A DNA stretch of 32,000 nucleotides from positions 2,040,001 to 2,072,000 of the forward strand of contig NC_013202.1 in NCBI RefSeq assembly GCF_000023965.1, given 5' to 3'. Each line of letters begins with the position of its first letter. The first letter of the stretch is position 1. The notes under the pieces are model-generated. The model was not told the origin of the DNA. It saw only the letters and a program-made list of their open reading frames with translations, and made no database searches. Positions 2,739 to 18,518 of this stretch are shown here, piece after piece. The DNA comes from Halomicrobium mukohataei DSM 12286. Lineage in GTDB: Archaea; Halobacteriota; Halobacteria; Halobacteriales; Haloarculaceae. Both the position numbers and the translations under genes were made by a program.

Positions 2739-2746
2739 CGCGCGCC

Positions 2747-4518: not shown

Positions 4519-4519
4519 C

Positions 4520-4531: not shown

Positions 4532-4580
4532 ACCTTCGTGACGATATTCGCCGCCCGGGGTGGCGACATCGGTCACGCAC

Positions 4581-4592: not shown

Positions 4593-4607
4593 GGGACTCC
4601 TCGGCCG

Positions 4608-5360
4608 TCACAGCTCGATCGTCAGATCGATCTCGTGGACGGGAACGTACAGTCGATCCGGCGACGCCCCCGGCTCCAGGTAGCACGTCACGCTGGCCGC
4701 GTCCGGATCGGGCGCACACTCCGAGAGAGCTGTCTGCTCGAAGGCTCGCTGCCAGAGCTCCCACCGCGGCGACGTGACGGTCACGCTGACGTTCTCGAAC
4801 TGTCCACCGGAGACGGCGACGGCCGAGGACTGCTGGTTCGCGCGTACCAGGACGGTCGACCCGCCGACGCTCCGGACGCGCTCGGTCCGCGTCTGGACGA
4901 TCGGGACGAGCACACGGCCGTCTCGGGCCACCAGCGGCGGTTCGACGGTGTGAAATCCGCCATCACGGGAGACCTGAAACACCGCGCCACCCTCGTAGAC
5001 GAGCCGTTGCGCTCCGTCGCTCTCGTAGACGATCGGCCTGACCGATCGCTCGACGCTCTCGTTCCCGTCGGCGGTGTCGCGGTCGATTGCGGTCACGTTG
5101 ATCGTCACGTTCTCGCCCGTGTACAACTGTGCGCTGCCGAGGCTGACCTCGGTCGCTCGGCTCGGGGCCCCCCGCTGATGGATGTCGGCCATGTTGTCCG
5201 CCAGCACGTCGAAGGCCTGCTGTGCGTTGTTCGTCTGCTCGGCGTCCCGCACGTCCTGGAGCGTCCCCAGTCCGCTGACCGAGATGATCGCGACCGAGGC
5301 GACGACCATTCCGAACACGAGGGCGAACCCGAGCACCTCACTGACCGCGCGATCAGTCAT
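4608..5360 (-). CDS. E1: class III signal peptide (pilin-like) protein, same fold family as the F N-terminal domain
   Basis: 250 aa; MTDRA|VSEVLGFALVFGMVVASVAIISV; PIVYESDGAQRLVYEGGAVFQVSRDGGFHTVEPPLV parallels F1 and F2. The ATG at 5360 overlaps the D1 stop. I recall this family being annotated as a haloarchaeal DUF (possibly DUF7289); unverified. Confidence 0.85.
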   Translation of the reverse strand: MTDRAVSEVLGFALVFGMVVASVAIISVSGLGTLQDVRDAEQTNNAQQAFDVLADNMADIHQRGAPSRATEVSLGSAQLYTGENVTINVTAIDRDTADGNESVERSVRPIVYESDGAQRLVYEGGAVFQVSRDGGFHTVEPPLVARDGRVLVPIVQTRTERVRSVGGSTVLVRANQQSSAVAVSGGQFENVSVTVTSPRWELWQRAFEQTALSECAPDPDAASVTCYLEPGASPDRLYVPVHEIDLTIEL

Positions 5361-5796
5361 TGCTCACCCCCAGGGCGCTGCCGTCGTAGCCGACGACGAC
5401 CGTTCCGCCGTCGGCCGACGAGTTGCTGAGTGCCGTCCTGTTCTGAACGCCCACCGTGACACGGACCTCGGGACTGCTCGACCGCAGGCGGATCGTCGGT
5501 GACGGCGTCGCCACGAGTTCGAGTCGGTAGGTCGTGCCCGTGATTCGGGCGGGGAACTGCTGTTCGATCCGCACCGTCGCACCGGCCGGATCGTCACTGG
5601 CTCTGACGAGCCTGTCCGCGCGTGCGACGTCCGCCGACACCTGCTGGCCGATCACCTGGAGTTCGGATCTGACGACCTGGCGCTGGCGGTCCTCGACGAA
5701 GCTGCCGGACGCGACGAGCAGCCCCGTCACCAGCATGGTCGCGATCGCGAGGCTGAGAACGTAGCTGAACGTCGAGGAGACGGCGCGATCGTTCAC
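5353..5796 (-). CDS. D1: small class III signal peptide (pilin-like) protein
   Basis: 147 aa; GTG start at 5796 forming GTGA with the C1 stop; MNDRA|VSSTFSYVLSLAIATMLVTGLLV. Paralogue of D2 (13693-14139). Confidence 0.8.
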   Translation of the reverse strand: MNDRAVSSTFSYVLSLAIATMLVTGLLVASGSFVEDRQRQVVRSELQVIGQQVSADVARADRLVRASDDPAGATVRIEQQFPARITGTTYRLELVATPSPTIRLRSSSPEVRVTVGVQNRTALSNSSADGGTVVVGYDGSALGVSND

Positions 5797-6788
5797 GGCG
5801 GCTCACCCGGCGCGACCCGGATCGTCGTCTCGTAGCGCAGCTTCGCCCCGTCGTAGCGGTACGTGACGTTCGCGGCGTAGATGGCGGGCGTCGCGTACGG
5901 ATCGTCTCCGGTCGACGACGACGGCAGGTTCCCGTTGCTGGTGGCGTCGTCGCCGACGACCAGCGAGTAGTTGCCGGTCACCTCGTCGCCCTCCTCGTAG
6001 GCGATCTCGTAGGGTTCCGACACGCCCTCGCCGAACGACAGCGCCGGACACGGTGCTCCGTCGACGAGCCCCGCCGTCAGATCGACGTGGAAGTAGTCGA
6101 CCCCGTCGTCGACCGCACAGACACCCTGCCGTCCGGCACCGTCCTCGACGCCGATCTTGTAGGTCCCGTCGGCGGTGTCGTGGGTGACGTTCATGATCCA
6201 GGTCGCGCCCGCGCCGTCCTCGATCCGCACACGGAACTGGTCGGCCGGGCCGCCGAAGTTGCCCGTCCGGTTGACGCCGCTCACGTTCATCCTGTAGGCA
6301 CGCGTCTCCGCGACGCCCTGGGCGACGCGCCAGTCGACACTCGTCGCGTTGCCTTCGCTCGCGTTTTCGAACGAGGAGCCGCCGGGGGCGTCGTCCCTGA
6401 CTCTGGTCCCGTTCTCGATGTCGGTCGGCCCCGCGACGCTGACCACCTTCCCGCCCGAGGCGTGATGCGCTCCCGACAGCGCCGAGAGCGTCCCGACGCT
6501 CTCGTCGAGGCTCGTCGCCAGCGTCGTCGTGTCGCTGGCGTTGTGCGTGTTCGCGTACTCGATCGCGTGGCCGGTCGACTGCTCGATCGACTGGCGCACC
6601 AGCAACGCGTCGTCGCTGCCAGCCGTTTCGCCGCGGCTGGCGAGGTTCTCCGTGAAGATCGCCGAGTTGACGACCAGCGCCAGCATGACGAACGTGACTG
6701 CCATCACGAAGGCCGCCACCAGAATGACCTGTGCGCGGTCGTCGCCCAGCGAGCGACAGCGGCGACGCAGGCGGCTCAGATCCGCCAC
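5793..6788 (-). CDS. C1: class III signal peptide (pilin-like) protein
   Basis: 331 aa; GTG start at 6788 overlapping the B1 end; ...LGDDRA|QVILVAAFVMAVTFVMLALVV. Collinear with C2. Shares a Cys pair 23-24 residues apart near the C-terminal third. Confidence 0.8.
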   Translation of the reverse strand: MADLSRLRRRCRSLGDDRAQVILVAAFVMAVTFVMLALVVNSAIFTENLASRGETAGSDDALLVRQSIEQSTGHAIEYANTHNASDTTTLATSLDESVGTLSALSGAHHASGGKVVSVAGPTDIENGTRVRDDAPGGSSFENASEGNATSVDWRVAQGVAETRAYRMNVSGVNRTGNFGGPADQFRVRIEDGAGATWIMNVTHDTADGTYKIGVEDGAGRQGVCAVDDGVDYFHVDLTAGLVDGAPCPALSFGEGVSEPYEIAYEEGDEVTGNYSLVVGDDATSNGNLPSSSTGDDPYATPAIYAANVTYRYDGAKLRYETTIRVAPGEPP

Positions 6789-7384
6789 GCGACCACCTCC
6801 ACGCGGACCACGTTGTACACCGAGGTGCCGACCTGCTGGACGGGATAGCGACTCGCCGAACCGACCGTCACCGACTCGTTCGCGGTCTCGTCCGGTCGCA
6901 TCAGCGGATCGTCCGGCTCGAGTGTCACGGTCCGTGAGGCCGACACCGCGTTGTCGCTCGGCCGACCCCGGTAGATCATCCGCCGGGTGGCGATTCCGCC
7001 GCTCGGCCTGCGGTACCGGAGGTAGACGTTGTAGGAGATACTGCGCTCGTCGAGCGTCCGTTCCAGGATCTGCCCGAAGGTCGTGTCCGGCGGCTCGTTC
7101 GTGTAGAACCCGATGTCGGGCGCGCCGTGGAACCGACCGTCGGTGTCGTTCCAGTAGCGGACGCTCGTCGAGAGCGCGCCCCGGTCGGCCGCCGTCGCGA
7201 GCACGCCCTGCGCGACCGAACGCTGCTGGTTCTCGATGTGCTGGCTCGAGGTGCTGGCCGACAGCGGCGTCACTGCCGTCATCTGCATCGCGAAGACGAC
7301 GCTGCTCAACAGCAGCAGCCCCGCGATCACCGCTTCGAGCGTGTGGGCCTGCCCGCGGTCAGGACTCGTACTGCCGGGTGTCAC
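6776..7384 (-). CDS. B1: class III signal peptide (pilin-like) protein (start uncertain: GTG 7384 or ATG 7453)
   Basis: - DRG|QAHTLEAVIAGLLLLSSVVFAM matches B2 (MERG|QAYTLEGTIGAIIVVIAVLIGL); ends ...VVRVEVVAWRI.
- The ORF can extend to the ATG at 7453 (overlapping the A1 stop).
- However, 7385-7446 carries the same noncoding-type element found after the E1 stop, and would encode a basic, non-halophilic peptide.
- I therefore prefer the GTG at 7384, giving a 202-aa product. Confidence 0.7.
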   Translation of the reverse strand: MTPGSTSPDRGQAHTLEAVIAGLLLLSSVVFAMQMTAVTPLSASTSSQHIENQQRSVAQGVLATAADRGALSTSVRYWNDTDGRFHGAPDIGFYTNEPPDTTFGQILERTLDERSISYNVYLRYRRPSGGIATRRMIYRGRPSDNAVSASRTVTLEPDDPLMRPDETANESVTVGSASRYPVQQVGTSVYNVVRVEVVAWRI

Positions 7385-7433
7385 TGTTTCACGATATTCG
7401 CGACCACGGGACCGCAATATTCTGTACAGACGT

Positions 7434-7445
7434 ACAGCCGGCAGT
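7434..7445 (-). repeat. post-stop motif ACTGCCGGCTGT, copy 3 (1 nt after the A1 stop, minus strand)
   Basis: Matches the motif at 11 of 12 positions (13 of 14 if the following AC is included). On the minus strand it is followed after 32 nt by GCGAATATCGT (plus coordinates 7391-7401), the same arrangement as after the E1 stop. Confidence 0.65.
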
Positions 7446-7446
7446 A

Positions 7447-7989
7447 TCACCATAGTACGACCTCCAGCGTGACGACCTCGCGATTCAGCGACACCACTCG
7501 ACGCGCGGTCACCGACTCGTCCACGTCGGCCGTCGTCGGTTCGCCCGCCCGGAGAGACACGTCGCCACTCTCGCAGTCGCTCCGGTCCCGCAGCGACGCG
7601 GTGTCCGCGTCCCAGCACAGCGGACTCGCCCCCTCCCGGGCCGTCGTCCCGTTTCGCGTCACCGTGACGTTGACCCGCTGGCGGCTGTCCAGCCCCAGCC
7701 GCTCGTTCGTCGTCTCGCCCGCGAAGTGACAGCCACTCGCAGAGCGATTGTCGAAAAACACCGCCGTACACGTGCCGTTCAGGACCTTCGGACGCTCGGC
7801 GCTGCCCAGCGTCGCCCGCGAGAGATCGTCCGCCACCCTGTCGACGGCGACGGTCTCCTCCTGTGCCCCCGCGGTGAACGGCTCGACCACGCCGGGCACG
7901 AACAGGAAGACGAACAGCACGACGGCGAGGAAGAGACTCATACCGAACGCGAAATCCAACGTCGTCTGTCCGCGTGTGTGACCCCGCAT
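7447..7989 (-). CDS. A1: class III signal peptide (pilin-like) protein
   Basis: 180 aa; MRGHTRG|QTTLDFAFGMSLFLAVVLFVFLF; ends VVTLEVVLW. Paralogue of A2. First gene of the minus-strand array in cassette 1. Confidence 0.8.
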   Translation of the reverse strand: MRGHTRGQTTLDFAFGMSLFLAVVLFVFLFVPGVVEPFTAGAQEETVAVDRVADDLSRATLGSAERPKVLNGTCTAVFFDNRSASGCHFAGETTNERLGLDSRQRVNVTVTRNGTTAREGASPLCWDADTASLRDRSDCESGDVSLRAGEPTTADVDESVTARRVVSLNREVVTLEVVLW

Positions 7990-8040
7990 ACTGTGACCCG
8001 AAACCGCGCTGACTCTGATGGAGGGAGGCTGTTGCCCGCC

Positions 8041-8049
8041 TTATCTATT
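8041..8049 (-). promoter_or_regulatory. AT-rich TATA-like element (AATAGATAA on the minus strand) upstream of A1
   Basis: The only AT-rich block between the tRNA and A1, 52-60 nt upstream of the ATG at 7989. It would imply a short leader. Confidence 0.3.
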
Positions 8050-8133
8050 GTGGCCGAACTGTACATCAGTCGACACGACGTGCTCGACGACGGCGGACGA
8101 CACCGTGACCCACGGTCCGATCCCTTCGATGGG

Positions 8134-8139
8134 TTTAAG
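8134..8139 (+). promoter_or_regulatory. TATA box (TTTAAG) of tRNA-Ala
   Basis: Lies inside GGGTTTAAGAAAACCC, 29-34 nt upstream of tRNA position 1 (8168). This is a canonical archaeal TATA sequence at the canonical distance. Confidence 0.6.
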
Positions 8140-8167
8140 AAAACCCACACGGTACGAAACGATGCGA

Positions 8168-8239
8168 GGGCTCGTAGATCAGTGGTAGATCATCCCCCTG
8201 GCACGGGGAAGGCCCCGGGTTCAAATCCCGGCGAGTCCA
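8168..8239 (+). tRNA. tRNA-Ala (anticodon GGC)
   Basis: Hand-folded cloverleaf:
- Acceptor GGGCTCG/CGAGTCC with the G3:U70 alanine identity pair.
- D arm GATC-AGTGGTA-GATC.
- Anticodon arm TCCCC-CTGGCAC-GGGGA, anticodon GGC at 8200-8202.
- Variable loop AGGCC.
- T arm CCGGG-TTCAAAT-CCCGG.
- Discriminator A at 8239; CCA is not encoded. Confidence 0.9.
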
Positions 8240-8290
8240 CTATTCTGCGTCGCGAGCAAAATTCGCGAGCGGCGCGAATCGTCGTCGACA

Positions 8291-8306
8291 CCCGGATTTG
8301 AACCCC
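8291..8306 (-). other. inverted tRNA T-arm-like fragment (non-functional)
   Basis: The minus strand reads GGGGTTCAAATCCGGG and shares the 12-nt core GGGTTCAAATCC with the tRNA-Ala T arm. The flanks cannot form a T stem or acceptor stem. Confidence 0.5.
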
Positions 8307-8345
8307 TGGAAGTCGCAGCGCCGAGCGCAGCGAGGTGACCGTCTT

Positions 8346-8372
8346 CCCCTGGCTCAAATCCCGTCGAGCCCA
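8346..8372 (+). pseudogene. degenerate direct copy of a tRNA 3' end (T arm plus acceptor)
   Basis: CCCCTGGCTCAAATCCCGTCGAGCCCA versus the tRNA-Ala segment CCCCGGGTTCAAATCCCGGCGAGTCCA: 23 of 27 identical by hand alignment. It has no 5' half and its T stem no longer pairs. Confidence 0.5.
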
Positions 8373-8706
8373 TCTGTAACTAAACGATGCTGGTGCCATC
8401 TTGAATCGCATTTTCGCTGAAATAACGTCTTTAGCGGAGCGATTGGCGTTTTCGAATGATCCTCAGAAAACGGAGATGCTAAGGAGAGCAAGCGGAGGTC
8501 CCGCAGTCTGGCGGTTCCTGAAAGGGAAGTCCGTCGCTAGTACGGCTCGTCTGTCGACGAGTATATCGATTCCCCGGCTCTCCCCAATGGAAGGTGCTGG
8601 CCATGAGCGATCCGGCCGAGACGTCCACGAGCCAGAGTGCGAGCATATTGCGGAGACAATCTGGGAAGTACCGTGATCACTCTGTGAGAGCACAGCTATG
8701 CCTCCC

Positions 8707-8728
8707 GATAGATTTAATCCTATCTATC
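8707..8728 (+). promoter_or_regulatory. F2 promoter: TATA box (TTTAAT, 8713-8718) embedded in the perfect 7-bp inverted repeat GATAGAT-N8-ATCTATC
   Basis: The TATA lies 26-35 nt upstream of the candidate F2 starts (8739 TTG, 8748 ATG). The palindrome arms flank the TATA, which suggests an operator overlapping the core promoter. Confidence 0.5.
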
Positions 8729-8747
8729 CGGTGGGTTTTTGTTCTCT

Positions 8748-11700
8748 ATGATACAATGCTGTGCTAGCGATCACTGGGAAAATATGTGGGGTCAATACGA
8801 ACTGGACGAACGCGGTGTCTCGAATCTTGTGGGTGTTATCCTGCTAGTAGCAATTTCCATAACGGGGGCGTTACTGATCCTTACAGCGGGTCAAACGACA
8901 ATTCAGGACACTCAAAACGAGCAGAACGCGGAAGTCGTATCGGACATGTTCAAACAGGTCGACTCGATGTTCCAGTCGGTACCACGAAACGAGAGCAACT
9001 CTGGATCACGATCGGTTGCGGTTCCAGAGAGTGTTCAGGGGTCAGTAAAGGCGAACAACGATACGACATATAGGATACGACTGAACGATAATCCGACCTG
9101 TGACACAGGTGTACAACCACTGGGATCAATGCAGTACGAGGAGGATGGCACGGTAGTCGGCTACGAAGGAGGGGGCGTTTGGGAGTCCAGAGAGGGTAGT
9201 ACAGTGATGGAGTCGCCGCCGGCACTCACGTACAAGGACGGAAGCCTCAACGTCCAGTTCCAGCGTGTGTCTGGAAACATCACTGACTCCAACGAAATTA
9301 CCGCACAAGTCAACGCTACGGACGAACGCGCGCTCAATGACGAACTCTCGGTACTACTGTACACGAATCTCACACCGTCGAACATCAGCAGTGCAACGTC
9401 GTACAGTCTGACGTGTGCGCCGGCACGACTTCAGAACGCCACTGTGTTCATCAATGACAGTCAGTTCGCTGGCGGGTGGGCACGCTACGCAGAGGACCGT
9501 TTTAATGACCGCCGTGTCGATGTCCAACCCAGCAACTCAGTGAGTCCACGCGAGAACGTTTCGATCACCTTCGAACTCGGTGATGTGTCGCTGCCAGAAT
9601 TCTCTGCTCGGAACGTGACCACGAAACGATACAGTGATACGGGCCCACTGTACGTCAACGCCACCGTCCAGAACGAGGGTGGACTGAGCAGTGAGCAAAC
9701 GGTGACGTTCACCTTCGAAGACCCGGGCGGTAACGAAGTCTCGACCGATTCGAGGGATGTTTCGCTCAACGGTGGTGAGTCAAAGCGAATGAAGTTCGAA
9801 GTCCCTGCTAGCGACTTGAGTTCGGTCACCGCTGGGACGTACGACGCAACGATCGAGACGGAAGACGAGTCAGAATCCAGGGCAGTTCAGTTCACGTCTG
9901 GGAATCACGTGCCAGAGTTCCAGATCACTTCTGTTTCAGCCCCCTCACAGGGACAGGTCGGCGACGACCTGACAGTTGACGTGACTGTCGAGAACCGCGG
10001 AAGTATGACCGGGACGCGAGCAGTCGCCTACGGGTTCGACGGGTCGACAGAGAATACGACAATGTTGCGCCTCCATCCCGGCCAGACGAAGACTCTGAGT
10101 TACCCCCTGTCGACGACTACAGACGGAAGCCACGACTGGACGGTCCAGACCGATGGCACTTCCGAGCAAGGAACTGTCTTTGTGGGGACGGGACCGACGT
10201 TCACCATCAGTGATACGGACGCACCGAAACATGCGGGCGCTGGCAACACCTTCTGGCTCAATGCCACGATTGGCAATACTGGTCAACTCAACGGCACGCG
10301 TGATATCAACCTCACGATCCGGAACGACACTAACGGGAATGTCGTCACGGACGAAGATCAAACTGTCAGCATCAACGGCACGATCGCTGACAGCAGCGAC
10401 GAGGCGACGGTCAACGCCTCGGGAACAATCACCACACCAGGGACTTACGAGTACAAAATCGACACGGGAGATATGGTCCAGACCGGCGGTTTCACTGTCG
10501 GACCGGCACGGTACCCGAATTTCATCGTCACGTCCCTGCGCTTCTCCGACGATCCCGTCGTGAAAGGTGATCAAGTCACCATCGAAGCAGACATCAAGAA
10601 TACTGGCCGTGTAGATGACACACAGCCTGTCAAGATCTCGACCGAGCGCGATATCTTGACGGCACCTAACCGACACGTCGATCCCGGCGACGTAGTGACG
10701 GTTAGTACTACTGTCGACGTCGCGTCACCGACGTTCGTCCTCGGAGAGGCCAACGAAATCACCGTCGAGACCGACAACAATACCGTCGCTCAGAATCTGG
10801 AGGTATTGGCCCAAGAGCCCATCGGCGAGACCGACGACGGACAGATCATCGCCAACGAACGTCTAGACGTTAGCGTCAGACTCCTCGGAGCAGAACTGGA
10901 AGGGAGCAACAGAGAATGGTGCAATCCCAGATACCGCTCGTGTCTCGGCAGCTTCCGGACAAACGGTGGCTACCAGCGTTACGGTATCATCAACGATCCC
11001 GTCGAAATGTCACTCCTGATCAACGGCCAAACGGAGAGTGATCTCTGGCAGTCACTGCCGGGTGATGGCGATGTGAATCACCCTGAAGCCGAACAGGAAC
11101 TTCTGAACGGTCAGAACCCGTACAACGAGACAGCCACCCTAGAGAAAGACGATCGGGCAATCGTGACTGCAACATCGTACCGCTGTAGTTATTACCAGTA
11201 CACGGATGTACGGTTCCCCGACCTCATCACGTTGGGTAACACCGAGCAAGACGCCGTCGGCAAAGAGTGCGCCAACCGTGGGAGGACACGGCTTTCGATA
11301 AACGGGAATGGCGAAGACGACAGAGTTGTCATAAGGAAGGACGGAGAGAGCATCCGCGGCGGCGAGGAGTTTGAGCCTCAGGCGGCAAACTACCAGCGCA
11401 ACGTCAAGCAGATGTTGCAGGGTCGCCTGAACGAGACCGGCCACCTTGACCTGTCGCCCGGCGAACGAGTGCTGATTTACGAACTCTCTGACCGAGACGC
11501 GACCATTGAACAAGCAAGCCAGTCAGGCGATCCCGACTACAACGACGCCCTCGTACTGTTCAAAGTCCTGTCGAAGAACCGCACTCTCTCGCCGCCGGCA
11601 TCCTACGAGATTACCGATCTTAGCGCACCGGCGAGCGTTCGACGCGGCGACTCCGAGACGATTACAGCGACCATCAACAACACCGGTGGACAGGAAGGTG

Positions 11701-12626
11701 AGACAGACATCCAGTTTGCATTCGGCGGTACGACTGTCGAGACAGAATCGACTGGAAAACTCGAACCCGGTGAGAAGACGACCGTAACCTTCGACGTTCC
11801 CACGGGATCGACTGGGACCTTCGGATACACCGTAACTGTCGCAGACGAGCCGACGGAAAATCGGGCAGGACAATTGACCGTCGGTGTGCCACGATCGCCC
11901 CACTTCCAAGTCACCCAGTTCACTCCCGACGCAACCGCTGTTGAACGGGGTGAGACGGTCGGGATCGAGACGACGATCACCAATGTCGGCGCCACAAGCG
12001 ACACTCAAACTGTCGAACTGCGCAACGTCACTGGTAGCAACGACACGGTCGTCGACACAGTATCTGGCGTGTCTCTGGCGGGCAACGCCGACACCACACT
12101 CCCTCTTGACCTTCCGACACACACCAATGGGACCATCCGGTATACGGTATCGACTGAGGACGACCGTGCGATCCCACAGCGAGCTTACGTCAACGAATCG
12201 CACGTTAAGATCAATCAGACTGAGGTTGGGCTGAGTACCTACAACGAGAGTGAACTCATCGAACGAAAGTCAGTGCCACGGATGACCGTGAAACTGAACA
12301 ATCGTGGCGGACTGGGAGACGACCGTGATGTCAAATTAACAATCACGAACCAGTCCGACGGCACTACTCACTCCGACACGACTACCGTAAGTGTCGGAGA
12401 CGGGGAAATAAAGCCACTGTACCCCGGATATGCTACGTTCGACACTTCCTCGATGGGGATCTCTGAAGGCTACTACAGTTACTCGATCGAGGTTGAAGAC
12501 GACGGGGCTCGCGAGGACTACTGGACGGGTGAACTATTCGTTCACGAAGATGGGACGGTCGAACAATCGTCTGACTCTGACTCGCCAATCAACGTCGACT
12601 CTGGACAGATCGAAGTCGGCAGCTGA
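8748..12626 (+). CDS. F2: giant class III signal peptide (pilin-like) adhesin candidate with 7 CARDB-like repeats
   Basis: - The ORF opens at TTG 8739; ATGs at 8748 and 8784 are alternative starts.
- Signal: ...YELDERG|VSNLVGVILLVAISITGALLIL.
- N-terminal domain like E and F1 (MQYEEDGTVVGYEGGGVWESREGSTVMESPPAL).
- Seven ~100-aa repeats start near 9595, 9911, 10194, 10515, 11595, 11898 and 12204, each beginning P-x-F-x-[IV]-T/S.
- Each repeat contains a [VI]-x-[VI]-x-N-x-G core (VNATVQNEGG, VDVTVENRGS, LNATIGNTGQ, IEADIKNTGR, ITATINNTGG, IETTITNVGA, VKLNNRGG), as in CARDB domains.
- The central 10810-11594 segment is unique and has 4 Cys. There are many N-x-S/T sequons. Confidence 0.85.
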   Translation: MIQCCASDHWENMWGQYELDERGVSNLVGVILLVAISITGALLILTAGQTTIQDTQNEQNAEVVSDMFKQVDSMFQSVPRNESNSGSRSVAVPESVQGSVKANNDTTYRIRLNDNPTCDTGVQPLGSMQYEEDGTVVGYEGGGVWESREGSTVMESPPALTYKDGSLNVQFQRVSGNITDSNEITAQVNATDERALNDELSVLLYTNLTPSNISSATSYSLTCAPARLQNATVFINDSQFAGGWARYAEDRFNDRRVDVQPSNSVSPRENVSITFELGDVSLPEFSARNVTTKRYSDTGPLYVNATVQNEGGLSSEQTVTFTFEDPGGNEVSTDSRDVSLNGGESKRMKFEVPASDLSSVTAGTYDATIETEDESESRAVQFTSGNHVPEFQITSVSAPSQGQVGDDLTVDVTVENRGSMTGTRAVAYGFDGSTENTTMLRLHPGQTKTLSYPLSTTTDGSHDWTVQTDGTSEQGTVFVGTGPTFTISDTDAPKHAGAGNTFWLNATIGNTGQLNGTRDINLTIRNDTNGNVVTDEDQTVSINGTIADSSDEATVNASGTITTPGTYEYKIDTGDMVQTGGFTVGPARYPNFIVTSLRFSDDPVVKGDQVTIEADIKNTGRVDDTQPVKISTERDILTAPNRHVDPGDVVTVSTTVDVASPTFVLGEANEITVETDNNTVAQNLEVLAQEPIGETDDGQIIANERLDVSVRLLGAELEGSNREWCNPRYRSCLGSFRTNGGYQRYGIINDPVEMSLLINGQTESDLWQSLPGDGDVNHPEAEQELLNGQNPYNETATLEKDDRAIVTATSYRCSYYQYTDVRFPDLITLGNTEQDAVGKECANRGRTRLSINGNGEDDRVVIRKDGESIRGGEEFEPQAANYQRNVKQMLQGRLNETGHLDLSPGERVLIYELSDRDATIEQASQSGDPDYNDALVLFKVLSKNRTLSPPASYEITDLSAPASVRRGDSETITATINNTGGQEGETDIQFAFGGTTVETESTGKLEPGEKTTVTFDVPTGSTGTFGYTVTVADEPTENRAGQLTVGVPRSPHFQVTQFTPDATAVERGETVGIETTITNVGATSDTQTVELRNVTGSNDTVVDTVSGVSLAGNADTTLPLDLPTHTNGTIRYTVSTEDDRAIPQRAYVNESHVKINQTEVGLSTYNESELIERKSVPRMTVKLNNRGGLGDDRDVKLTITNQSDGTTHSDTTTVSVGDGEIKPLYPGYATFDTSSMGISEGYYSYSIEVEDDGAREDYWTGELFVHEDGTVEQSSDSDSPINVDSGQIEVGS

Positions 12627-12945
12627 GCACTCGAAGCGGTTGGCTGTTGTCCTTGTTTCTGATGCTCTTTTCGATGCTCCTCTGCGTCGTGGCCTGATGC
12701 CCCCGCTCACAGCTACTGTCACGTCAGAAGCGACTGATCGACAGAATGCACTACTACAGTACGCCAGTGTCATCGGTACCCGAACCGCTAGCTCGCTGTC
12801 TCGTCACAGCAGCACGCGTCTCGGACAACGAAAGCACGATATCATCTCTCTGTTGAGCGACATCGACTGCTTCATACTGCCAGCAATCCGTTACGAAGCG
12901 TTTCTCGACTCCGAGATCCCGAACCCGAAATCCCTTGCAATAGTG

Positions 12946-12957
12946 ACAGCCGACAGT
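12946..12957 (-). repeat. post-stop motif ACTGTCGGCTGT, copy 4 (1 nt after the E2 stop, minus strand)
   Basis: Exact 12-mer inside the low-GC block, at the same position relative to the E gene stop as in cassette 1. A degenerate plus-strand partner, GCGGTTGGCTGT, lies at 12636-12647, just after the F2 stop. Confidence 0.7.
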
Positions 12958-12958
12958 A

Positions 12959-13690
12959 TCAGTTTACAGCTATTCCGACGGTCGTATTGTGGACGACAGC
13001 TCGGTCAATCCCGTCACAGGTGTATCGTCCGTTCCCGCCGTTCCATCTCGGAAGTTCCGACTCGAACAGACGCTCCCAGGCGTCGGTGTGTCGTGTGTTT
13101 CGAACGTTTACACTCACGTTCTTTACACCTTTATCTGGACTTAGCGGCGTGATCGACTCGCGGTTCTGTGCGTTCGCTCGCACTGTTACGGGACCGTCGC
13201 TACTCTGGCTCACCTGACCGTTGATCCTGACCAACGAGACGTGAGCCGTGTCACTCCCACAGCGCAGTGCCGGTGTACCCGTCACGACTTCGCCGTTCGG
13301 TTGGCTGCGGAACGTGGCACCAGCCGTGTATATAAATCGTGTCCCACTGTCGGTTCGACGGACGAAGCTCTCGACTGGCACGGTTTCGTTGGTGTAGCTG
13401 TCGTCCTCGTAGCCGATCTCGATTCGTATCTCGGCGTCGGCAGTCTGGAGTCGGTCGCCGCTGAGCTCTAGCCGCTGGACGTGCTGTGGGGCTCTGTTGT
13501 CTCGGACTGCCCCGACTCCCCTCGCAAAACTGGTCATCGATCGCTCTGCTGTGTTCGCCTGTGCACTATCACTGATATCTTCGACGGCTTCGACACCGTA
13601 GACTCCGGTGAAGCCGACCGACGTAATAATGATCGTGAACACGAGAGTAAATGCTAACGTATCCGAGACGGCGCGGTCGGTTCCGGTCAT
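12959..13690 (-). CDS. E2: class III signal peptide (pilin-like) protein
   Basis: ORF 12959..13717 trimmed to the ATG at 13690 (2 nt after the D2 stop); 243 aa; MTGTDRA|VSDTLAFTLVFTIIITSVGF; FIYTAGATFRSQPNGEVVTGTPAL parallels E1. Confidence 0.85.
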   Translation of the reverse strand: MTGTDRAVSDTLAFTLVFTIIITSVGFTGVYGVEAVEDISDSAQANTAERSMTSFARGVGAVRDNRAPQHVQRLELSGDRLQTADAEIRIEIGYEDDSYTNETVPVESFVRRTDSGTRFIYTAGATFRSQPNGEVVTGTPALRCGSDTAHVSLVRINGQVSQSSDGPVTVRANAQNRESITPLSPDKGVKNVSVNVRNTRHTDAWERLFESELPRWNGGNGRYTCDGIDRAVVHNTTVGIAVN

Positions 13691-13692
13691 AA

Positions 13693-14139
13693 TTAGGGAT
13701 CCCTCAATTCGAGACACGGTTCCGAAACGTCGAAAACGACGTTGATTTTCCCGCCATCAACAGCACTCGCACAGACACTGCTCTCGTTCTCGAACCGATA
13801 GACGACGGTGCGTTGTGACTCTCCGGTCGCTTCGAGTACTAGAGTCGACTTCGGGGAGTCTGGTTCTAGAACCACGTCGTAGGTCCGCCCTCCGACCCGC
13901 GCCGGATGAGTAGTAGTGTAGCTCAGGTCCGCATCGACACCAGTGGTGTTGAACTGGTCCATACTGACGAGTTCACTCGTGACTGCGCTACCAACGTTCT
14001 CGAGCCCGTTTTCGACGACGTATGATCGCTGGTCGTCTAGTAGCCCACCAGCACCCACGAGTAAGCCCGTGATCATGATTGCCGAAATACCGATCGTCAG
14101 AGCGTGTGTGACGGCCGGCGTCACTGCACGGTTGTCCAT
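13693..14139 (-). CDS. D2: small class III signal peptide (pilin-like) protein
   Basis: 148 aa from the ATG at 14139 (a TTG at 14142 is also possible); MDNRA|VTPAVTHALTIGISAIMITGLLV. Paralogue of D1. Its start overlaps the C2 stop by 1 nt (TGATG). Confidence 0.85.
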   Translation of the reverse strand: MDNRAVTPAVTHALTIGISAIMITGLLVGAGGLLDDQRSYVVENGLENVGSAVTSELVSMDQFNTTGVDADLSYTTTHPARVGGRTYDVVLEPDSPKSTLVLEATGESQRTVVYRFENESSVCASAVDGGKINVVFDVSEPCLELRDP

Positions 14140-15050
14140 CAAGATCCCGCCTCCCCAACGGCGAAAGTGCGGTTGTACGCCGTCGACGGGCTACGATACT
14201 TGTAATCGATGCCCGGATACAGAATTCGTTCACGGGTGCCTGCAAAGTTACCTGTATTGACTGAGCCACCGACGACGGCAATCTCGTATCCACCCTCGGC
14301 TCTGTTACCCTTTTCGAACTCGATAGTGTACGGGCCGTCTAGCGCATCAGTGAACGACGTGAACGTACAACTGGGGGGTGTCATGGCATCTTCGCCATCG
14401 ATCAAGTTCAGTTCGATATCGTCGGCATCCGACCGCCTACATGCTGTATTCGTCGATGTCGGCGTTTCGACGACGACATCAACATCGTCTGGGCCTGGCC
14501 CAGCTACTGGCACTCCCTCGAGCTTGAGTCTCCATTCGTCTCCCGCAGGGTTGCTGACGACGACTTGGAACGACGTTCCGCCAGTTTTGACGGAAGACTC
14601 GTTGAGCCAGAACTGTGACACGGTTTCCGCATCGGTGACCAAGTCCCAGCTGGGCCGCCTGGGACTCGTTTGTTTCCGGTACGGGTCATCCGACTGTGTC
14701 ATTACTGTTTCGTTGACCGACGCCGCCAGGTTGAGCGTGACGTTCGTGTACGTTGCCCCGCCTGCCGCCGTCATGTTCTCTGAGTAGTTCTGGTACGTCG
14801 AGACGTTCTCGCGTAGCGCCTCCTGATACTCCGATCGGTCTGTTCCGTTTCGGACTCTCATATCGAGCCCATAGAGGGCAGCCCGCGTCTCGGCTTCCGC
14901 CTGTGCTGCCTGGTCGATGGCGTCAGTCTGAGCGTTAGATCCTATGGTGTCGGTGTACTGGAGGTCATTCAGTTGGATTACGACGCCGACGATGACGACC
15001 GAAAAGAGGATTGCTCCGACGAGCAAGAGCTGGCCACGTTCGGCTACCAT
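14139..15050 (-). CDS. C2: class III signal peptide (pilin-like) protein
   Basis: 303 aa; MVAERG|QLLLVGAILFSVVIVGVVI. Collinear with C1 and keeps the conserved Cys pair (ACRRSD...PPSC). Overlaps the B2 end by 7 nt. Confidence 0.85.
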   Translation of the reverse strand: MVAERGQLLLVGAILFSVVIVGVVIQLNDLQYTDTIGSNAQTDAIDQAAQAEAETRAALYGLDMRVRNGTDRSEYQEALRENVSTYQNYSENMTAAGGATYTNVTLNLAASVNETVMTQSDDPYRKQTSPRRPSWDLVTDAETVSQFWLNESSVKTGGTSFQVVVSNPAGDEWRLKLEGVPVAGPGPDDVDVVVETPTSTNTACRRSDADDIELNLIDGEDAMTPPSCTFTSFTDALDGPYTIEFEKGNRAEGGYEIAVVGGSVNTGNFAGTRERILYPGIDYKYRSPSTAYNRTFAVGEAGS

Positions 15051-15622
15051 ACGACCAGTCGAACCTCCACGATGTTGTATAGTGGGGAGTCCTCGTCGAC
15101 ATCTGGGATCTTGAACGCTCCCTCACTAATCTCGTATCCTGCTGTCCCACAGCCGTTCCCGAACTGGATCGTCTGATCGTCGTAGAGAGTGATCCGCTGG
15201 GTCCCGACCGCGGTGGTCCGGCCGGGCGAAGCGAGCGCCTGGTTCTCACTGGTCGAGATCACCCGCTCTGTGCGATCGTCGACAGAGTCGTTCCAGTAGC
15301 TCAGATAGAGGTTGTAGTTTCGGTTTTGCCTATCGAAGGTGTGATTCAGCATCTTCTCAAAGCGAGCGTTCCTGTCGCTCTCGACCGTCCCGTCGACAAC
15401 TGATTTGTCTGCACCCCAACACCGAACGACTTCCGACAGCGCACCTGTTTCGGCACCTACGGTCAGCACGTCTTCGCTCTGGGTACTGAGTTGCTCCGAG
15501 ACTTGATCCTGTTGACTGTTCAACTGTCCCGTGTCGACTGCTTGGAGGCCGATCAACACAGCGATTACGACGATGATGGCACCGATTGTCCCTTCCAGCG
15601 TGTACGCCTGTCCCCGTTCCAT
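15044..15622 (-). CDS. B2: class III signal peptide (pilin-like) protein
   Basis: 192 aa; MERG|QAYTLEGTIGAIIVVIAVLIGL; ends IVEVRLVVW. Paralogue of B1. Confidence 0.85.
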   Translation of the reverse strand: MERGQAYTLEGTIGAIIVVIAVLIGLQAVDTGQLNSQQDQVSEQLSTQSEDVLTVGAETGALSEVVRCWGADKSVVDGTVESDRNARFEKMLNHTFDRQNRNYNLYLSYWNDSVDDRTERVISTSENQALASPGRTTAVGTQRITLYDDQTIQFGNGCGTAGYEISEGAFKIPDVDEDSPLYNIVEVRLVVW

Positions 15623-15624
15623 CG

Positions 15625-16170
15625 TTACCAGACCCTCACGACTAGCAGACAGTTGCTCGAACAGATTGTGCTCTCGTCTTCGAGGGTAACCACCCTCGCT
15701 GTACTGGCTGCCCCGTCCTGGTTCTTATAAGCTTCACCCCAAGTCAGTTCTCCGGATATTCCTGTGGCTGGTTTTCGAGAACCATCCGCAAGAGCGTCGC
15801 TGCCGACGACTGTGACGTTGATCGATAGATTGATGCGTCGGTCTGTGGCCACGTCTAGCCCAGCACCGGCTCGCAACCGGTCCAGAGAGTCGGTATCCCG
15901 GTTGAGTGATTGCTCGATCCCGTCAGACGAATCGTACCGCAAGATATTGTCTTTGTCTTCGACGCTGTAGTTCTCGACGACGTAGGAGGCGACTCGGTCC
16001 GCGGACTCTTGTACGTCTCCGCTGACCGGGCGGTCGTACGTCGTTACGACGCTGTTCTGTATGAAAACGAAGGTCGCAATGATCGTCAGCAACAGAACCG
16101 CAACCCCAACCGCAAAGTCCTGCGGTGTCTGTCCACGGTCGTTCGTCGGCTTGTCTTTCCGTACTGTCAA
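15625..16170 (-). CDS. A2: class III signal peptide (pilin-like) protein (start uncertain: TTG 16170 or ATG 16314)
   Basis: ...KPTNDRG|QTPQDFAVGVAVLLLTIIATFVFI; ends CLLVVRVW. The ORF runs up to the ATG at 16314, but that adds 48 basic residues with no counterpart in A1. A TTG at 16170, preceded by GGGGGGAG, gives 181 aa, matching A1 (180 aa). Confidence 0.7.
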   Translation of the reverse strand: MTVRKDKPTNDRGQTPQDFAVGVAVLLLTIIATFVFIQNSVVTTYDRPVSGDVQESADRVASYVVENYSVEDKDNILRYDSSDGIEQSLNRDTDSLDRLRAGAGLDVATDRRINLSINVTVVGSDALADGSRKPATGISGELTWGEAYKNQDGAASTARVVTLEDESTICSSNCLLVVRVW

Positions 16171-16478
16171 TCTTACTCCCCCCACAAATGCGAGCGGATG
16201 GCTGATCCGCCGTCGTACCGCTCGCTTCGTAGCTGCCCCCCGTCGCAGTTCTGCTGGCTGCTGAACTCTCTCAACAACTGTCCGCAACTTCTGCACAGCG
16301 TCCCGAGCCAGCATTGTACTCTCGACATATTCTATCCACGACGGGGCCTGTTGTCACGCACCCAGAAGATGCGTTCGAGTTGATTCAAAATTTGCCCGTC
16401 GGATTATTAGTGTTTTGTTACCATAGCGATGTGAAAGGGAACTGCTCGTGTTGAATCTACGATTCGTGAGGTCTGGTG

Positions 16479-18518
16479 CTATCCGACCGCGATCCAGGTG
16501 ATGAGCGCGATCGTCGGGAGGATCACCGCGAACTTCACTCCCGAGATGATGTTCACGTCCCGGATGTACCCCGCGATGAACGACGAGAGGAGCGCCTGCA
16601 GCGTGACGGCGTGGAAGAACAGCAACGAGAGCAGGTCCGTGTCGACGTTGCCGCCGAAGCTCTGCCCGGTCGCGCCACTTCCCCCCGCACCGGCCGCGCT
16701 CTCGGACAGTCCCGCCATCACGTCGAGGAACTGAGTCTTCAGCAGTGCCATCACGCCGAGCAGCGTCAGGTACGTCATGAGGATGATGACGACCTGCATT
16801 CGGGTCCGGGCGATCCGCTCGCGGTCGATGTCGTCCTGATTCTCCGAGGCCTGTGCCGCCGTCGAGAGCACGTTCTGGATCTGGCTGGACGCTTCCTGTG
16901 CCTCGCTGATGAGCTTGACCGTCCGGGCGAGTCGCGGGACGTGGTACTTGTTGTTGAACTCCCTGAGGGCGTCTTTGAGGCTGGTGCCGTAGTTGACCTT
17001 CGCGTGCATGATCTCGAACTCCTCCGAGAGCTTGCCTCCCGATGTCGTCGAGACCACCTGTACGGACTCCAGCAGCGTCATGCCCGTGTCGTTCGCGCTG
17101 GCGAGTTTCCTGAGGTTCTCCGAGAGACTGCCGATGATCGTCTTGCGCGAGCGGACGTTCCACTCGTAGAAGATCGCTAGCGGGAGCAGGTTGATGTACA
17201 GTGGCACGTACACCCAGAAGAACGTCCCGAGCACTGGTCGAGCGATCATCCCGTCGAGGCTCATCGGTGCGAGATCGAACACGACGACCAGCAGCAACGC
17301 GACGATCGTCACGGGGACCGTCACGCCGAGCACGAACAGCGGGTGATCGCGGAAGAACAGGTCCGGGCGCTTGAGCACCTGCATGAACTCGTAGGTCCCT
17401 TCGCGGCTCTTGATGCGGTCGAAGATCGTGTACTGGCCGGTGTAGTTCTCGACCAGTCCGAGGTTCAGAAAGCCCAGCCCGTCGTCGACGACGAAGTCGT
17501 CGTCCTTGCCGTCGGGCCGCAAGTAGCCGTCGCCGACCTCGTCTCGGGTCACCGTCGAGACGAGCACGAGGAAGCCGGCACCGGTCAGCGGGATCAGCCC
17601 GTAGACCGTGCCATAGAGGAGCCGGTTCTGCGCGTCGCCCATCATCGACATGATGACGAGGATGATGATGAGCAAGAGCGGAAACAGCGACAGGGTCATG
17701 TACATCTCCCCGAACAGTTCGAGGGTGTCGAGCATCTTCTGCTGTTCCTGCTTTGCGGTCCGCATGTGCTTGTCCTTCTGGTCTTCGAGGAAGGAGGTCA
17801 TGTCCCCGCCGGAGTTGATGATCGAGAGCATGTCGGTCAGGAACTGCGAGAGCTCGTCCGACGGCGTCTCGAGTGCCTGATTGCGGATCGCGGTCCGGTA
17901 GTCAGTATCGAAGTACTCCGTCTCCAAGACGATCGACTGGAACTCCTTGGCACACTCCCCGTAGGTGTCGTCGGCCTTGGCCATCGCCTGGAGAATCTCC
18001 AACTGGTTGAGCCCCCCGACCGACAGCGCGTACATGAACGAGATCGAGTCCGACAGCAGGACGTTCACCTCCCGCTCGCGTGCGTTGGCCCGGAAGTACG
18101 GGATCGAGACCAGCGATCCGAAGCCGATACCGAAGCCGATGACACCGAACACCAGCCCGGTGACCAGGATCAGCGCCGGGATCTTGATCACGTCGAGCGC
18201 GGCCGAGACCCCCTCTGGCAGTGGGATCCCGATGAACGTCGGTGCCTCGGCTCCAGTGCCGCCCAGCAGGAAGGTGACGCCGAGGTAGCCGATCAGCGTG
18301 CCCACGAGCCACAGCGCCAGTCCCGAGATGACGCCGATCGCCAGCGCGCGTGCGAGGAACATCTCGACGTTGTCGGCCATCCGGGCCTGTGCGAGCTTCT
18401 TCTCGACGTTCCTGACGAAGTCGCCGTCCTCGTTGAACAGCCACTGGAAGAGGGGATAGAACGTGTCCCCGAGCGCGCCACCCGAGAGCTGTCGCTGGCC
18501 GCGCGTGTCGAGGCTCAT
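16479..18518 (-). CDS. pilC: type IV pilus/archaellum-family membrane platform protein (PilC/TadC/FlaJ-like, T2SS protein F family)
   Basis: ORF 16479..19040 trimmed to the ATG at 18518, which overlaps the pilB stop (ATGA). 679 aa, polytopic, with two large cytoplasmic helical domains separated by TM clusters, as in FlaJ/TadC-type proteins. Immediately downstream of the ATPase gene. Confidence 0.85.
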   Translation of the reverse strand: MSLDTRGQRQLSGGALGDTFYPLFQWLFNEDGDFVRNVEKKLAQARMADNVEMFLARALAIGVISGLALWLVGTLIGYLGVTFLLGGTGAEAPTFIGIPLPEGVSAALDVIKIPALILVTGLVFGVIGFGIGFGSLVSIPYFRANAREREVNVLLSDSISFMYALSVGGLNQLEILQAMAKADDTYGECAKEFQSIVLETEYFDTDYRTAIRNQALETPSDELSQFLTDMLSIINSGGDMTSFLEDQKDKHMRTAKQEQQKMLDTLELFGEMYMTLSLFPLLLIIILVIMSMMGDAQNRLLYGTVYGLIPLTGAGFLVLVSTVTRDEVGDGYLRPDGKDDDFVVDDGLGFLNLGLVENYTGQYTIFDRIKSREGTYEFMQVLKRPDLFFRDHPLFVLGVTVPVTIVALLLVVVFDLAPMSLDGMIARPVLGTFFWVYVPLYINLLPLAIFYEWNVRSRKTIIGSLSENLRKLASANDTGMTLLESVQVVSTTSGGKLSEEFEIMHAKVNYGTSLKDALREFNNKYHVPRLARTVKLISEAQEASSQIQNVLSTAAQASENQDDIDRERIARTRMQVVIILMTYLTLLGVMALLKTQFLDVMAGLSESAAGAGGSGATGQSFGGNVDTDLLSLLFFHAVTLQALLSSFIAGYIRDVNIISGVKFAVILPTIALITWIAVG

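Follow-up and report, generated by a model that had tools for sequence, protein, structure and literature searches.

The 32,000-nt stretch of Halomicrobium mukohataei DSM 12286 analysed here (contig NC_013202.1, positions 2,040,001 to 2,072,000; called below the window) contains a block of low GC content, at positions 8376-16478 of the window, which lies between a tRNA-Ala gene and pilC and carries six genes, called cassette 2. We consider it probable that this block is the current occupant, named allele A, of a fixed and replaceable slot, so that the locus would be a flexible genomic island of the replacement type, with a type IV pilus cassette as its cargo. The slot itself, and the layout in which cassette 2 and a second, paralogous set (cassette 1) stand on the two sides of the tRNA, are old; only the occupying allele is new.

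The block had been noticed in a first-pass annotation made from the letters of the DNA. By exact count it has 56.0% GC versus 65.2% for the remainder of the window, so that the drop is real, but the 43-48% GC read on sampled lines overstated its mean depth. The GC profile forms a plateau at 0.52-0.59 across about 8.3-16.5 kb, against 0.66-0.70 to the left; in 500-nt windows the mean is 0.562 inside the block (range 0.494-0.600, n=31) and 0.652 outside (n=93; Mann-Whitney p=4e-16). The codon-usage and tetranucleotide profiles that had been proposed as a check agree. The GC content at third codon positions (GC3) is 0.63-0.70 in all six block genes versus 0.86-0.92 in cassette 1, pilC, pilB and the housekeeping genes, and the tetranucleotide correlation with the rest of the window is 0.76-0.81 for the block versus 0.92-0.97 for the other 4-kb chunks. 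The apparently intermediate GC3 of pilC (0.79) comes from the over-extension of the listed open reading frame (ORF); the true pilC has a GC3 of 0.91, and the right edge of the block is therefore sharp. The overall GC of pilB and pilC is only 0.62, an effect of the amino acids that they encode, with about 0.36 at second codon positions (GC2). The block is thus compositionally foreign to the DNA around it.

Comparison between strains gives the limits of the foreign DNA. Against KBTZ05, which carries another allele (allele B), blastn identity is 94-95% up to 8372, falls to about 75% or to unalignable sequence over 8373-16351, and returns to 95% from 16352, i.e. the A/B breakpoints are at 8372/8373 and 16351/16352. 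In the comparison with L002, a metagenome-assembled genome (MAG) without cassette 2, the breaks fall at 8372 and 16483. The same limits are thus obtained whether the slot of the relative is in state B, C or null, which puts the left border at 8372/8373 and the right border at 16352-16483, in good agreement with the edges near 8376 and 16479 first placed by composition. The six genes of the cassette, all confirmed, take up about 7.1 kb; the non-coding part, first estimated at about 0.9 kb, amounts to about 1.0 kb (372 + 332 + 308 nt).

The divergence between strains, expressed as Nei-Gojobori estimates of synonymous (dS) and non-synonymous (dN) substitutions, carries the argument for replacement. 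Between the window and KBTZ05 (A versus B), dS is 0.130 in the flanks and 0.115 in cassette 1, and reaches 1.25 in the five small genes of cassette 2 and 1.50 in the large one, i.e. about ten times the flanks, dS above 1 being saturated and hence rough only. With a dN/dS of about 0.1 in cassette 2, the excess is synonymous, and selection at the protein level cannot explain it. The two pairs within allele groups give the opposite picture: between the window and H. katesii (both A), dS is 0.066 in the flanks, 0.032 in the five small genes and 0.021 in the large gene; between KBTZ05 and IBSBa (both B), it is 0.032 in the flanks, 0.043 in cassette 1, 0.012 in the five small genes and 0.004 in the large gene. 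Since cassette dS falls below flank dS in both pairs, a locally raised mutation rate is excluded, and the sharing of each allele postdates the divergence of the chromosome around it. In the profiles of single-nucleotide polymorphisms (SNPs), the cassette is likewise the least diverged stretch within allele groups. Allele replacement by recombination is the explanation that we favour, with reasonable confidence. It had been suggested from the start that the exchange went through the pilC and tRNA sides rather than through a mobile element, and this suggestion has gained from the comparison: the roughly ten-fold dS and the identical breakpoints against three states need no machinery of mobility.

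The occupants of the slot were surveyed in 80 loci orthologous through pilC, which were retrieved and mapped; allele states were defined by database searches with two cassette-2 proteins, by cluster membership and by contig look-ups. Among close relatives, the same slot holds at least four alleles plus a null state. Allele A (cassette GC3 0.63-0.70) belongs to the mukohataei group, ZPS1 and H. katesii, allele B (0.57-0.63) to KBTZ05 and IBSBa, allele C (0.59-0.66) to the metagenomic loci L084-86 (pilC 90%) and allele D (0.82-0.92) to the metagenomic loci L092-96 (pilC 93-94%); the null state is that of L002 (pilC 90%). The GC3 of pilC is 0.90-0.97 in every slot state. The window is 100.00% identical over 20,579 nt (blastn) to Halomicrobium sp. 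ZPS1 (CP045142.1) and to GCA_003992375.1, and its proteins cluster with those of H. mukohataei DSM 12286; H. katesii DSM 19301, a close relative, matches the locus at 98.4% identity (pilC 100%, flank proteins 96-98%). In ZPS1, GCA_003992375, H. katesii, KBTZ05, IBSBa and L084-86, the cassette-2-type set is enclosed by pilC and tRNA-Ala; on the short contigs L092-96 it follows pilC. The six Pfam families and their order do not change from allele to allele, while amino-acid identities are 71-85% for A versus B, 39-64% for A versus C and 51-79% for A versus D.

The arrangement extends beyond Halomicrobium. The succession pilB-pilC, cassette-2-type set, tRNA-Ala, cassette-1-type set recurs in five surveyed Haloarculaceae loci, those of HArc-gm2 (L005), Haloarcula sediminis (L009), Haloarcula onubensis (L024), Halorientalis marina (L026) and Halorientalis pallida (L037), so that this architecture is ancestral to a large part of the Haloarculaceae. 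In Haloferax, Natronomonas and Halorarius, a cassette-1-type set comes right after pilC, followed by tRNA-Ala and then S15. Three loci lack cassette 2 and have other occupants between pilC and tRNA-Ala: a nucleotidyltransferase/helix-turn-helix (HTH) pair in L002, lipoprotein genes at host GC in Halosimplex and, in Haloarcula pellucida (L008, 12034-19690), a 7.7-kb island of 51.7% GC, a different kind of occupant in which a metallo-beta-lactamase gene is accompanied by ORFs of very low GC, among them one with weak similarity to a replication (Rep) protein. These differing occupants make the pilC-tRNA interval a general hotspot. The first-pass annotation, which had asked what this interval holds in relatives, had left the choice between an insertion beside a resident cassette and the replacement of a resident. 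The exchange of a whole unit stands, but a new insertion beside the resident does not, as the layout recurs in several genera. It had also reasoned that the same two cassettes in all close relatives would indicate an ancient and stable arrangement; the relatives do have two cassettes of the same composition, but a different cassette in the slot, and L002 has none, so that this expectation is borne out by half.

The low GC is not a property of the gene family: an intrinsically low-GC family is ruled out by allele D, whose native GC3 of 0.82-0.92 stands in hosts with a pilC GC3 of 0.94. Native GC3 is also found in the sets of L003, L011 and L024, and across other genera the GC3 deficit goes from none up to 0.14, the Halomicrobium alleles A, B and C being extreme at 0.27-0.33. 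The direction of recent changes was obtained by polarising the third-position differences between the window and H. katesii with allele B as outgroup. The cassette shows 24 AT-to-GC versus 8 GC-to-AT changes, the flanks 21 versus 47 (Fisher p=4e-5); the cassette ratio departs from 1:1 (hand-computed binomial p of about 0.007), and our own arithmetic on these counts predicts about 2.2-2.5 to 1 for the host substitution process at a GC3 of about 0.65. A saturated outgroup biases the inference in the opposite direction, so that the test is conservative. The cassette is thus out of compositional equilibrium and drifting toward host GC. First codon positions (GC1) are at 0.55-0.59 in A, B and C versus 0.62-0.68 in the native alleles, and the FYMINK content at 0.18-0.20 versus 0.14-0.15, while pilC is constant across the same hosts. 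The native-GC alleles, the drift toward GC and the shift of GC1 and amino acids fit a long evolution under AT-richer pressure followed by a recent arrival.

At the left border, the tRNA-Ala(GGC) gene (8168-8240, plus strand, by ARAGORN and Rfam) anchors the slot. Its last 14 nt (8227-8240, CCCGGCGAGTCCAC) are the attachment (att) core of integrase-bearing elements. A degenerate duplicate of its 3' end (8347-8373, plus strand, 22/27 matches) stands 106 nt further, and its last base is the left limit of the allele-specific DNA; a minus-strand T-loop fragment is seen at 8294-8304. The same duplicate is found 131-136 nt from the tRNA in KBTZ05 (L081), L002, L011 and Haloferax (L070), better kept in KBTZ05 and L002 (25/27) than in the window. 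This duplicate is probably an old att-type scar; it may be a recurrent one, be kept similar by gene conversion, or have a function. No match to the tRNA end was found at the pilC side, as first stated: no att-like repeat lies near 16184-16479 even when 6 mismatches in 27 nt, or 2 in 14 nt, are tolerated, and neither mismatch-tolerant searches of the whole window with the 27-nt tRNA end and the 14-nt core nor base-level alignment of the pilC junction gave a second att site. Pfam gave no integrase or transposase match in the block, nor was an integrase found at 8241-16478 of the window. The first-pass statement that such genes are missing is thus true of the window but not of its relatives, with an integrase at the att core in H. 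katesii and a transposase within the cassette of KBTZ05. The latter, of the IS240 family (DDE type; L081, 12859-13494), sits in the convergent intergenic region between the cassette-2 DUF7289 gene and the large gene, and is missing in IBSBa and in the window.

The homology of H. katesii to the window starts at 8226 (last 15 nt of the tRNA), where an integrase adjoins: a tyrosine recombinase of 335 amino acids (L001, 20416-21423, minus strand; PF00589 and a SAM-like N-domain) abuts the 14-nt core. H. katesii thus carries a tRNA-Ala-integrated element that the window strain does not have. In L084, a pleolipovirus-type provirus (52-9553; VP3, HRPV-type envelope protein and integrase) ends in the same CCCGGCGAGTCCAC and directly adjoins the large cassette-2 gene, and IBSBa has an extra 1.27 kb at the tRNA. 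These integrase-bearing elements at the core make the tRNA a live additive hotspot. The cassette, however, is on the chromosomal side of core and scar, the integrases of H. katesii and L084 being across the core, and allele A occurs with an integrase (H. katesii) and without (window): the cassette is independent of the tRNA-integrating elements. Searches with DUF7288 gave no match by tblastn in 50,697 phage and virus records, no cassette-2-type protein in a scan of IMG/VR and a single match (33.5%) in PLSDB, on a 437-kb Salinigranum megaplasmid; a viral or plasmid shuttle was rejected on these searches.

At the right border, A/B identity resumes at 16352, with a conserved spacer between pilC and cassette 2 (16352-16478, minus strand). 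It contains a promoter-like block, GTAACAAAACACTAATA (16405-16421, minus strand), and a hairpin-forming element, ACGCATCTTCTGGGTGCGT (16356-16374), both common to alleles A, B, C and D, missing from the cassette-less L002 and without equivalent in cassette 1. Judged from their sequence, they are likely a putative promoter and leader of the cassette's own. The spacer first described beside pilC is thus more than random AT-rich sequence. The spacer is likely the right-hand limit of the allele-specific DNA, and may supply homology for the right-hand crossover. At the other end, the non-coding leader of the large gene (8373-8747, 52.7% GC) is allele-specific and unalignable with allele B; an ORF within it (8401-8676) has no Pfam match. 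An Rfam scan detected no known RNA in the non-coding parts of the block, and a scan for bacterial-type terminators, which does not cover archaeal signals, detected none in the convergent intergenic region.

On these data, the slot is bounded on the left by tRNA-Ala(GGC) with the old duplicate of its 3' end, and on the right by pilC with the conserved putative promoter/leader element. Its cargo is a self-contained module, made of five small proteins with class III signals and a pilin-adhesin fusion of 1292 amino acids, whose products the adjacent PilB/PilC machine might assemble. We propose that modules are swapped whole, through homologous recombination within these conserved borders and without the help of an integrase or transposase. 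Allele A would have evolved for long under AT-richer pressure, presumably in an unsampled lower-GC haloarchaeon, before it took the place of the cassette-2-type allele then resident in the H. mukohataei / H. katesii lineage. It would have spread between these two lineages after their split, and is now drifting toward the host GC. The pay-off could be an altered adhesion specificity, an altered virus receptor, or both.

Several observations weigh against this reading. The search for a donor covered a 5.8-billion-protein database (two scans), 185,579 species genomes, cluster membership and nine contig look-ups, and found no lower-GC host; all closest homologues are in Halomicrobium-like high-GC hosts. 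The first-pass proposal of a lower-GC haloarchaeal source, for which a BLAST search was to indicate the donor lineage, is thus borne out for the foreign composition but not for the donor, and we hold a lower-GC haloarchaeal donor to be less certain than the replacement itself. The alleles branch as ((A,B),D),C, in parallel with their hosts as judged by pilB/pilC, which would also fit descent within the clade, and the hosts of alleles C and D are known from metagenomic contigs only. The polarity test counts 32 cassette changes with an outgroup 25% diverged, and the dS values that carry the A/B contrast are in the saturated range. The SNP peaks expected from recombination at the borders are only modest: against H. 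katesii the peak is 4.8% in the last 250 nt of pilC, i.e. a single 250-nt bin, with neighbouring bins at 0.4-2.8%; values next to the tRNA are also raised, few genomes being compared. Finally, the structural model of the DUF7288 protein, discussed below, matched no solved pilin in the Protein Data Bank (PDB), the best Foldseek match having E=1.2 and TM scores not exceeding 0.22.

Some of these observations would be expected if alleles A to D were a long-lived polymorphism of the Halomicrobium clade, shuffled among close relatives without any foreign donor, the low GC of A, B and C coming from the regime of the locus itself, for example little recombination, and hence little GC-biased gene conversion, in a hyperdivergent stretch. 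The absence of a lower-GC donor in the search, the nearest relatives of every allele in Halomicrobium-like hosts and the agreement between allele and host relationships all speak for it, as do the evident exchange among close relatives and the many genera with some GC3 deficit in the set next to pilC. We nevertheless regard it as unlikely: allele D and the sets of L003, L011 and L024 have native GC3, i.e. a low-GC equilibrium is not built into the locus, the host substitution process is measurably moving allele A toward GC, and the shift in GC1 and amino acids implies that the allele long evolved under another pressure. It appears highly improbable that the block was inherited vertically and diverged fast where it stands, by local AT-biased hypermutation, relaxed constraint or diversifying selection, without transfer. 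In favour of this, no allele departs from the common gene order and content, and pilin-like genes outpace PilB/PilC everywhere, with a dN ratio of about 6 even in vertical-looking pairs. But the dN/dS of about 0.1 denotes purifying selection, the ten-fold excess is in dS, beyond the reach of selection on proteins, and the recent changes go toward GC, not AT; moreover, local hypermutation was ruled out by the two independent within-allele pairs with cassette dS below that of the flanks.

The tRNA invites another explanation, that a tRNA-targeting integrative element (provirus or integrative plasmid) delivered the block and later lost its integrase and distal att site. tRNA-Ala(GGC) is a live att site, used with the same core by the integrase of H. 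katesii and the pleolipovirus-type provirus of L084, and the allele-specific DNA starts exactly at the end of the tRNA-like scar; in addition, SNJ2-like proviruses carry type IV pilin genes (PMC12426801), and the 56% GC of the block resembles the roughly 54% of haloarchaeal pleomorphic viruses (PMC4535781). Such a delivery is improbable in our view, as the cassette is outside the att-bounded interval, no att-like repeat exists at the pilC side, and the same allele is present with and without an integrated element. Cassette-2-type sets with the conserved promoter block also follow pilC in operon orientation in several genera, and the virus records and viral contigs had no cassette-2-type DUF7288, the sole plasmid match being the distant one on a megaplasmid. 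The block indeed lacks the two marks of an additive tRNA-integrated island, an integrase at one end and a paired tRNA-end repeat. Conversely, five of the six features of replacement flexible genomic islands are found here; for the sixth, peaks of mostly synonymous SNPs in the conserved genes that border the island, the few genomes compared give a modest signal. A bolder idea makes the slot a dedicated exchange site rather than a passive target of recombination, with the tRNA-end duplicate as left anchor and the promoter/hairpin as right anchor, fed by a hidden low-GC reservoir (unsampled lineage or replicon). The duplicate is kept from Halomicrobium to Haloferax and ends to the base where the allele-specific DNA begins. 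The whole would amount to an archaeal serotype-switching system for pili, whose modules would repeatedly enter several high-GC Haloarculaceae; we consider it unlikely.

The ATPase gene pilB (18515-21010, minus strand, with a host-like GC3 of 0.88), which belongs to the conserved right anchor of the slot, encodes a type IV pilus assembly protein of 831 amino acids, with Pfam T2SSE at residues 413-633 together with PilB3_N and PilB3_C, an N-terminal extension of about 400 residues and a C-terminal one of about 200; it is 97% identical in amino acids to that of KBTZ05 (dS about 0.15). This architecture agrees with the Halobacteria-specific PilB4 type, which has extra terminal domains, as described for HVO_1160 (Makarova et al. 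2016, PMC4858521), the likeness being one of architecture. The right-hand anchor pilC (16479-18518, minus strand; Pfam T2SSF) encodes a TadC/T2SSF platform protein of 679 amino acids, 99% identical to that of KBTZ05 (dS 0.12). No prepilin peptidase gene is present in the window. In haloarchaea, sets of about five minor pilins are described together with large putative adhesins (PMC4858521), and we read the locus, from its sequence, as a haloarchaeal type IV pilus operon.

Five of the cassette-2 genes are on the minus strand and encode small pilin-like proteins. Gene 1 (DUF7287, 15625-16314; PF23958, E=2e-34; GC3 0.65) is annotated with 229 amino acids, but its true start is likely near 16170, judging from a class III signal, NDRGQ, at about residue 60 of the long ORF; it has 71-81% identity to allele B. 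Gene 2 (DUF7288, 15044-15622, 192 amino acids; PF23959, E=2e-45) has the signal MERGQ followed by a hydrophobic helix, and is 85% identical to allele B with a dS of 1.19; its AlphaFold2 (AF2) model shows a long N-terminal helix on a beta-sheet, a pilin-like topology (pLDDT 78, pTM 0.71). Gene 3 (DUF7261, 14139-15050, 303 amino acids; PF23922, signal ERGQ) is the most variable member, 76% identical to allele B and 51-53% to allele D. Gene 4 (DUF7266, 13693-14142, 149 amino acids; PF23928, signal DNRAV; dS 1.41 to allele B) is the smallest, and might be a candidate for the major subunit. Gene 5 (DUF7289, 12959-13690, 243 amino acids; PF23960, E=1e-35, signal TDRAVS; dS 1.62 to allele B) is the equivalent of the minor pilin of arCOG02911 type, which has been described as variable in length and prone to duplication (PMC4858521).

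Gene 6 (8748-12626, plus strand), convergent to the other five, encodes the pilin-adhesin fusion of 1292 amino acids: an N-terminal class III signal, ERGVS, a DUF7289 pilin module (residues 25-191) and CARDB/immunoglobulin (Ig)-like repeats (CARDB E=6e-22). It is 78% identical to allele B, with a dS of 1.50 and a dN/dS of 0.09, and its protein has no sequence relative in the PDB. This protein is recorded in databases as a “CARDB domain-containing protein” of 1165 amino acids, a record without the class III signal and the pilin module, or as a “DUF7289 family protein” of 1280-1292 amino acids. In each of the 12 products of the two cassettes, the class III motif [D/E/T]R[G/A][Q/V] precedes a hydrophobic helix some 20 residues long, and all 12 are acidic, as expected of haloarchaeal secreted proteins. 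The pilin assignment rests on these signal peptides, on topology and on the operon context; on the same kind of evidence, the six cassette-2 products would be surface-exposed, and the diversification of the cell surface by cassette capture, proposed at first, seems plausible.

Cassette 1 (2776-7989) is the paralogous set beyond the tRNA, with the same five DUF families by Pfam and a large protein. Its large DUF7289+DUF7305 protein of 580 amino acids (2776-4518) is encoded on the plus strand, and on the minus strand follow DUF7289 (4608-5360), DUF7266 (5353-5796), DUF7261 (5793-6788), DUF7288 (6776-7384) and DUF7287 (7447-7989), so that both cassettes are parallel: DUF7287, DUF7288, DUF7261, DUF7266 and DUF7289 on the minus strand, and a convergent large protein with an N-terminal DUF7289 module. 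With only 22-35% amino-acid identity between them, the cassettes are old paralogues and not a recent duplication. Cassette 1 is vertically inherited, with a host-like GC3 (0.86-0.91) and a dS to KBTZ05 of 0.10-0.12, equal to the flanks. An 80-nt segment at its DUF7288/DUF7287 junction (7367-7447) is missing in KBTZ05 and IBSBa. In other lineages, the cassette-1-type set beyond tRNA-Ala can be depressed in GC3, at 0.64 versus 0.76-0.84 in Salinibaculum rarum (L039) and 0.80 versus 0.89 in Haloarcula rubra (L016); this second slot may also be replaceable there.

Elsewhere in the window, a ribosomal-protein leader of the S15-Halobacteria type (RF03143, 71.6 bits) lies at 2528-2594 (minus strand), upstream of the S15 gene, and reveals that the 5' end of the S15 ORF, as listed, reaches too far. 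Some 970 nt (24671-25638) with a gene for an MscS-type mechanosensitive channel (PF00924, GC3 0.91) are missing at this place in KBTZ05, IBSBa and H. katesii. At the end of the window, 28628-32000 (plus strand) is a single ORF of at least 1124 amino acids that extends past the window end; its N-terminus resembles a signal peptide, Pfam-type domains are DUF7827 and, weakly, a bacterial Ig-like one, and its GC3 is 0.71 versus about 0.9 for the host; rRNA had been considered for the 28.4-32 kb stretch and was ruled out by Rfam. This ORF would be a second big surface protein with lowered GC3, and the place is possibly another variable surface locus.

Compared with the haloarchaeal type IV pilus systems already described, the locus has in common the extended PilB, the TadC/PilC platform, the five or so class III-signal proteins and a large putative adhesin downstream. 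It also shares the idea that one ATPase/platform pair serves different pilin sets, a modularity proposed by Makarova et al. 2016 (PMC4858521) and supported experimentally by the cross-complementation of PilB1-C1 and PilB3-C3 (Legerme and Pohlschroder 2019, PMC6491452). However, that modularity is one of deep phylogeny, whereas the genomes between which the swap is seen here are nearly identical (flank dS 0.13), and its borders are mapped and its composition is in evidence; moreover, two complete paralogous sets here flank one tRNA beside a single pilB-pilC pair. The several low-abundance pilin-like proteins encoded with a large adhesin recall the bacterial minor-pilin/PilY1 tip complexes, and the fusion of a pilin module to extra domains, which could display an adhesin on the filament, recalls modular pilin-adhesins such as PilB of S. 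sanguinis (PMC8179133), but no similarity of sequence or fold was detected, and the likeness is architectural only.

With tRNA-integrating proviruses and islands, the block shares its place next to a tRNA 3' end, the partial tRNA repeat, a GC below that of the host and a tRNA used by integrase-bearing elements in H. katesii and L084. It differs from them by having neither an integrase nor a second att site, by lying beyond core and scar, by continuing the pilB-pilC operon behind a conserved putative promoter and by having no homologues in viral records. Haloarchaeal type IV pili can nevertheless be virus receptors, and SNJ2-type pleolipoviruses carry pilin genes (Xiang et al. 2025, PMC12426801); by analogy, it is plausible that viruses using pili as receptors act as the selective agent.

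The closest counterparts are the replacement flexible genomic islands (Lopez-Perez et al. 2014, PMC4033161; Martin-Cuadrado et al. 2015, PMC4535781), known for the O-chain, flagellum-glycosylation, S-layer and giant-protein clusters of aquatic bacteria and for the cell-wall island of Haloquadratum walsbyi. As in these islands, the location is fixed, the clusters are equivalent but deeply divergent, their products would be surface-exposed, the borders have no integrase or insertion sequence (IS) hallmarks, purifying selection acts within alleles, near-identical islands occur in more diverged genomes, and exchange would proceed by homologous recombination in conserved borders. On the other hand, the cargo is here a type IV pilus minor-pilin/adhesin operon and not glycosylation or S-layer genes, and one border is a tRNA with an att-type scar which is also an additive-island hotspot. 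The alleles are homologous and collinear (six families) rather than unrelated gene sets, and a strong GC contrast with measurable amelioration goes together with weak border SNP peaks. We found no published description of this pilus cassette as a replacement island in the open-access literature. Our reading would extend to an archaeal type IV pilus operon a model of surface diversification that was developed on the O-antigen, capsule, flagellar-glycosylation and S-layer loci of bacteria and on the cell-wall island of Haloquadratum, in a case made unusually clean by its mapped borders, its ten-fold dS jump, the sharing of an allele across species and the measurable amelioration. It gives material to ask whether one PilB/PilC machine can serve interchangeable pilin sets, whether pilus-receptor viruses drive turnover in hypersaline communities, and how tRNA genes double as homology anchors and integrase targets; the annotation of the products as DUF proteins also hides a strain-typing locus for Halomicrobium and related genera. 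By analogy, the slot could be regarded as the archaeal counterpart of the surface-antigen switching islands of bacteria.

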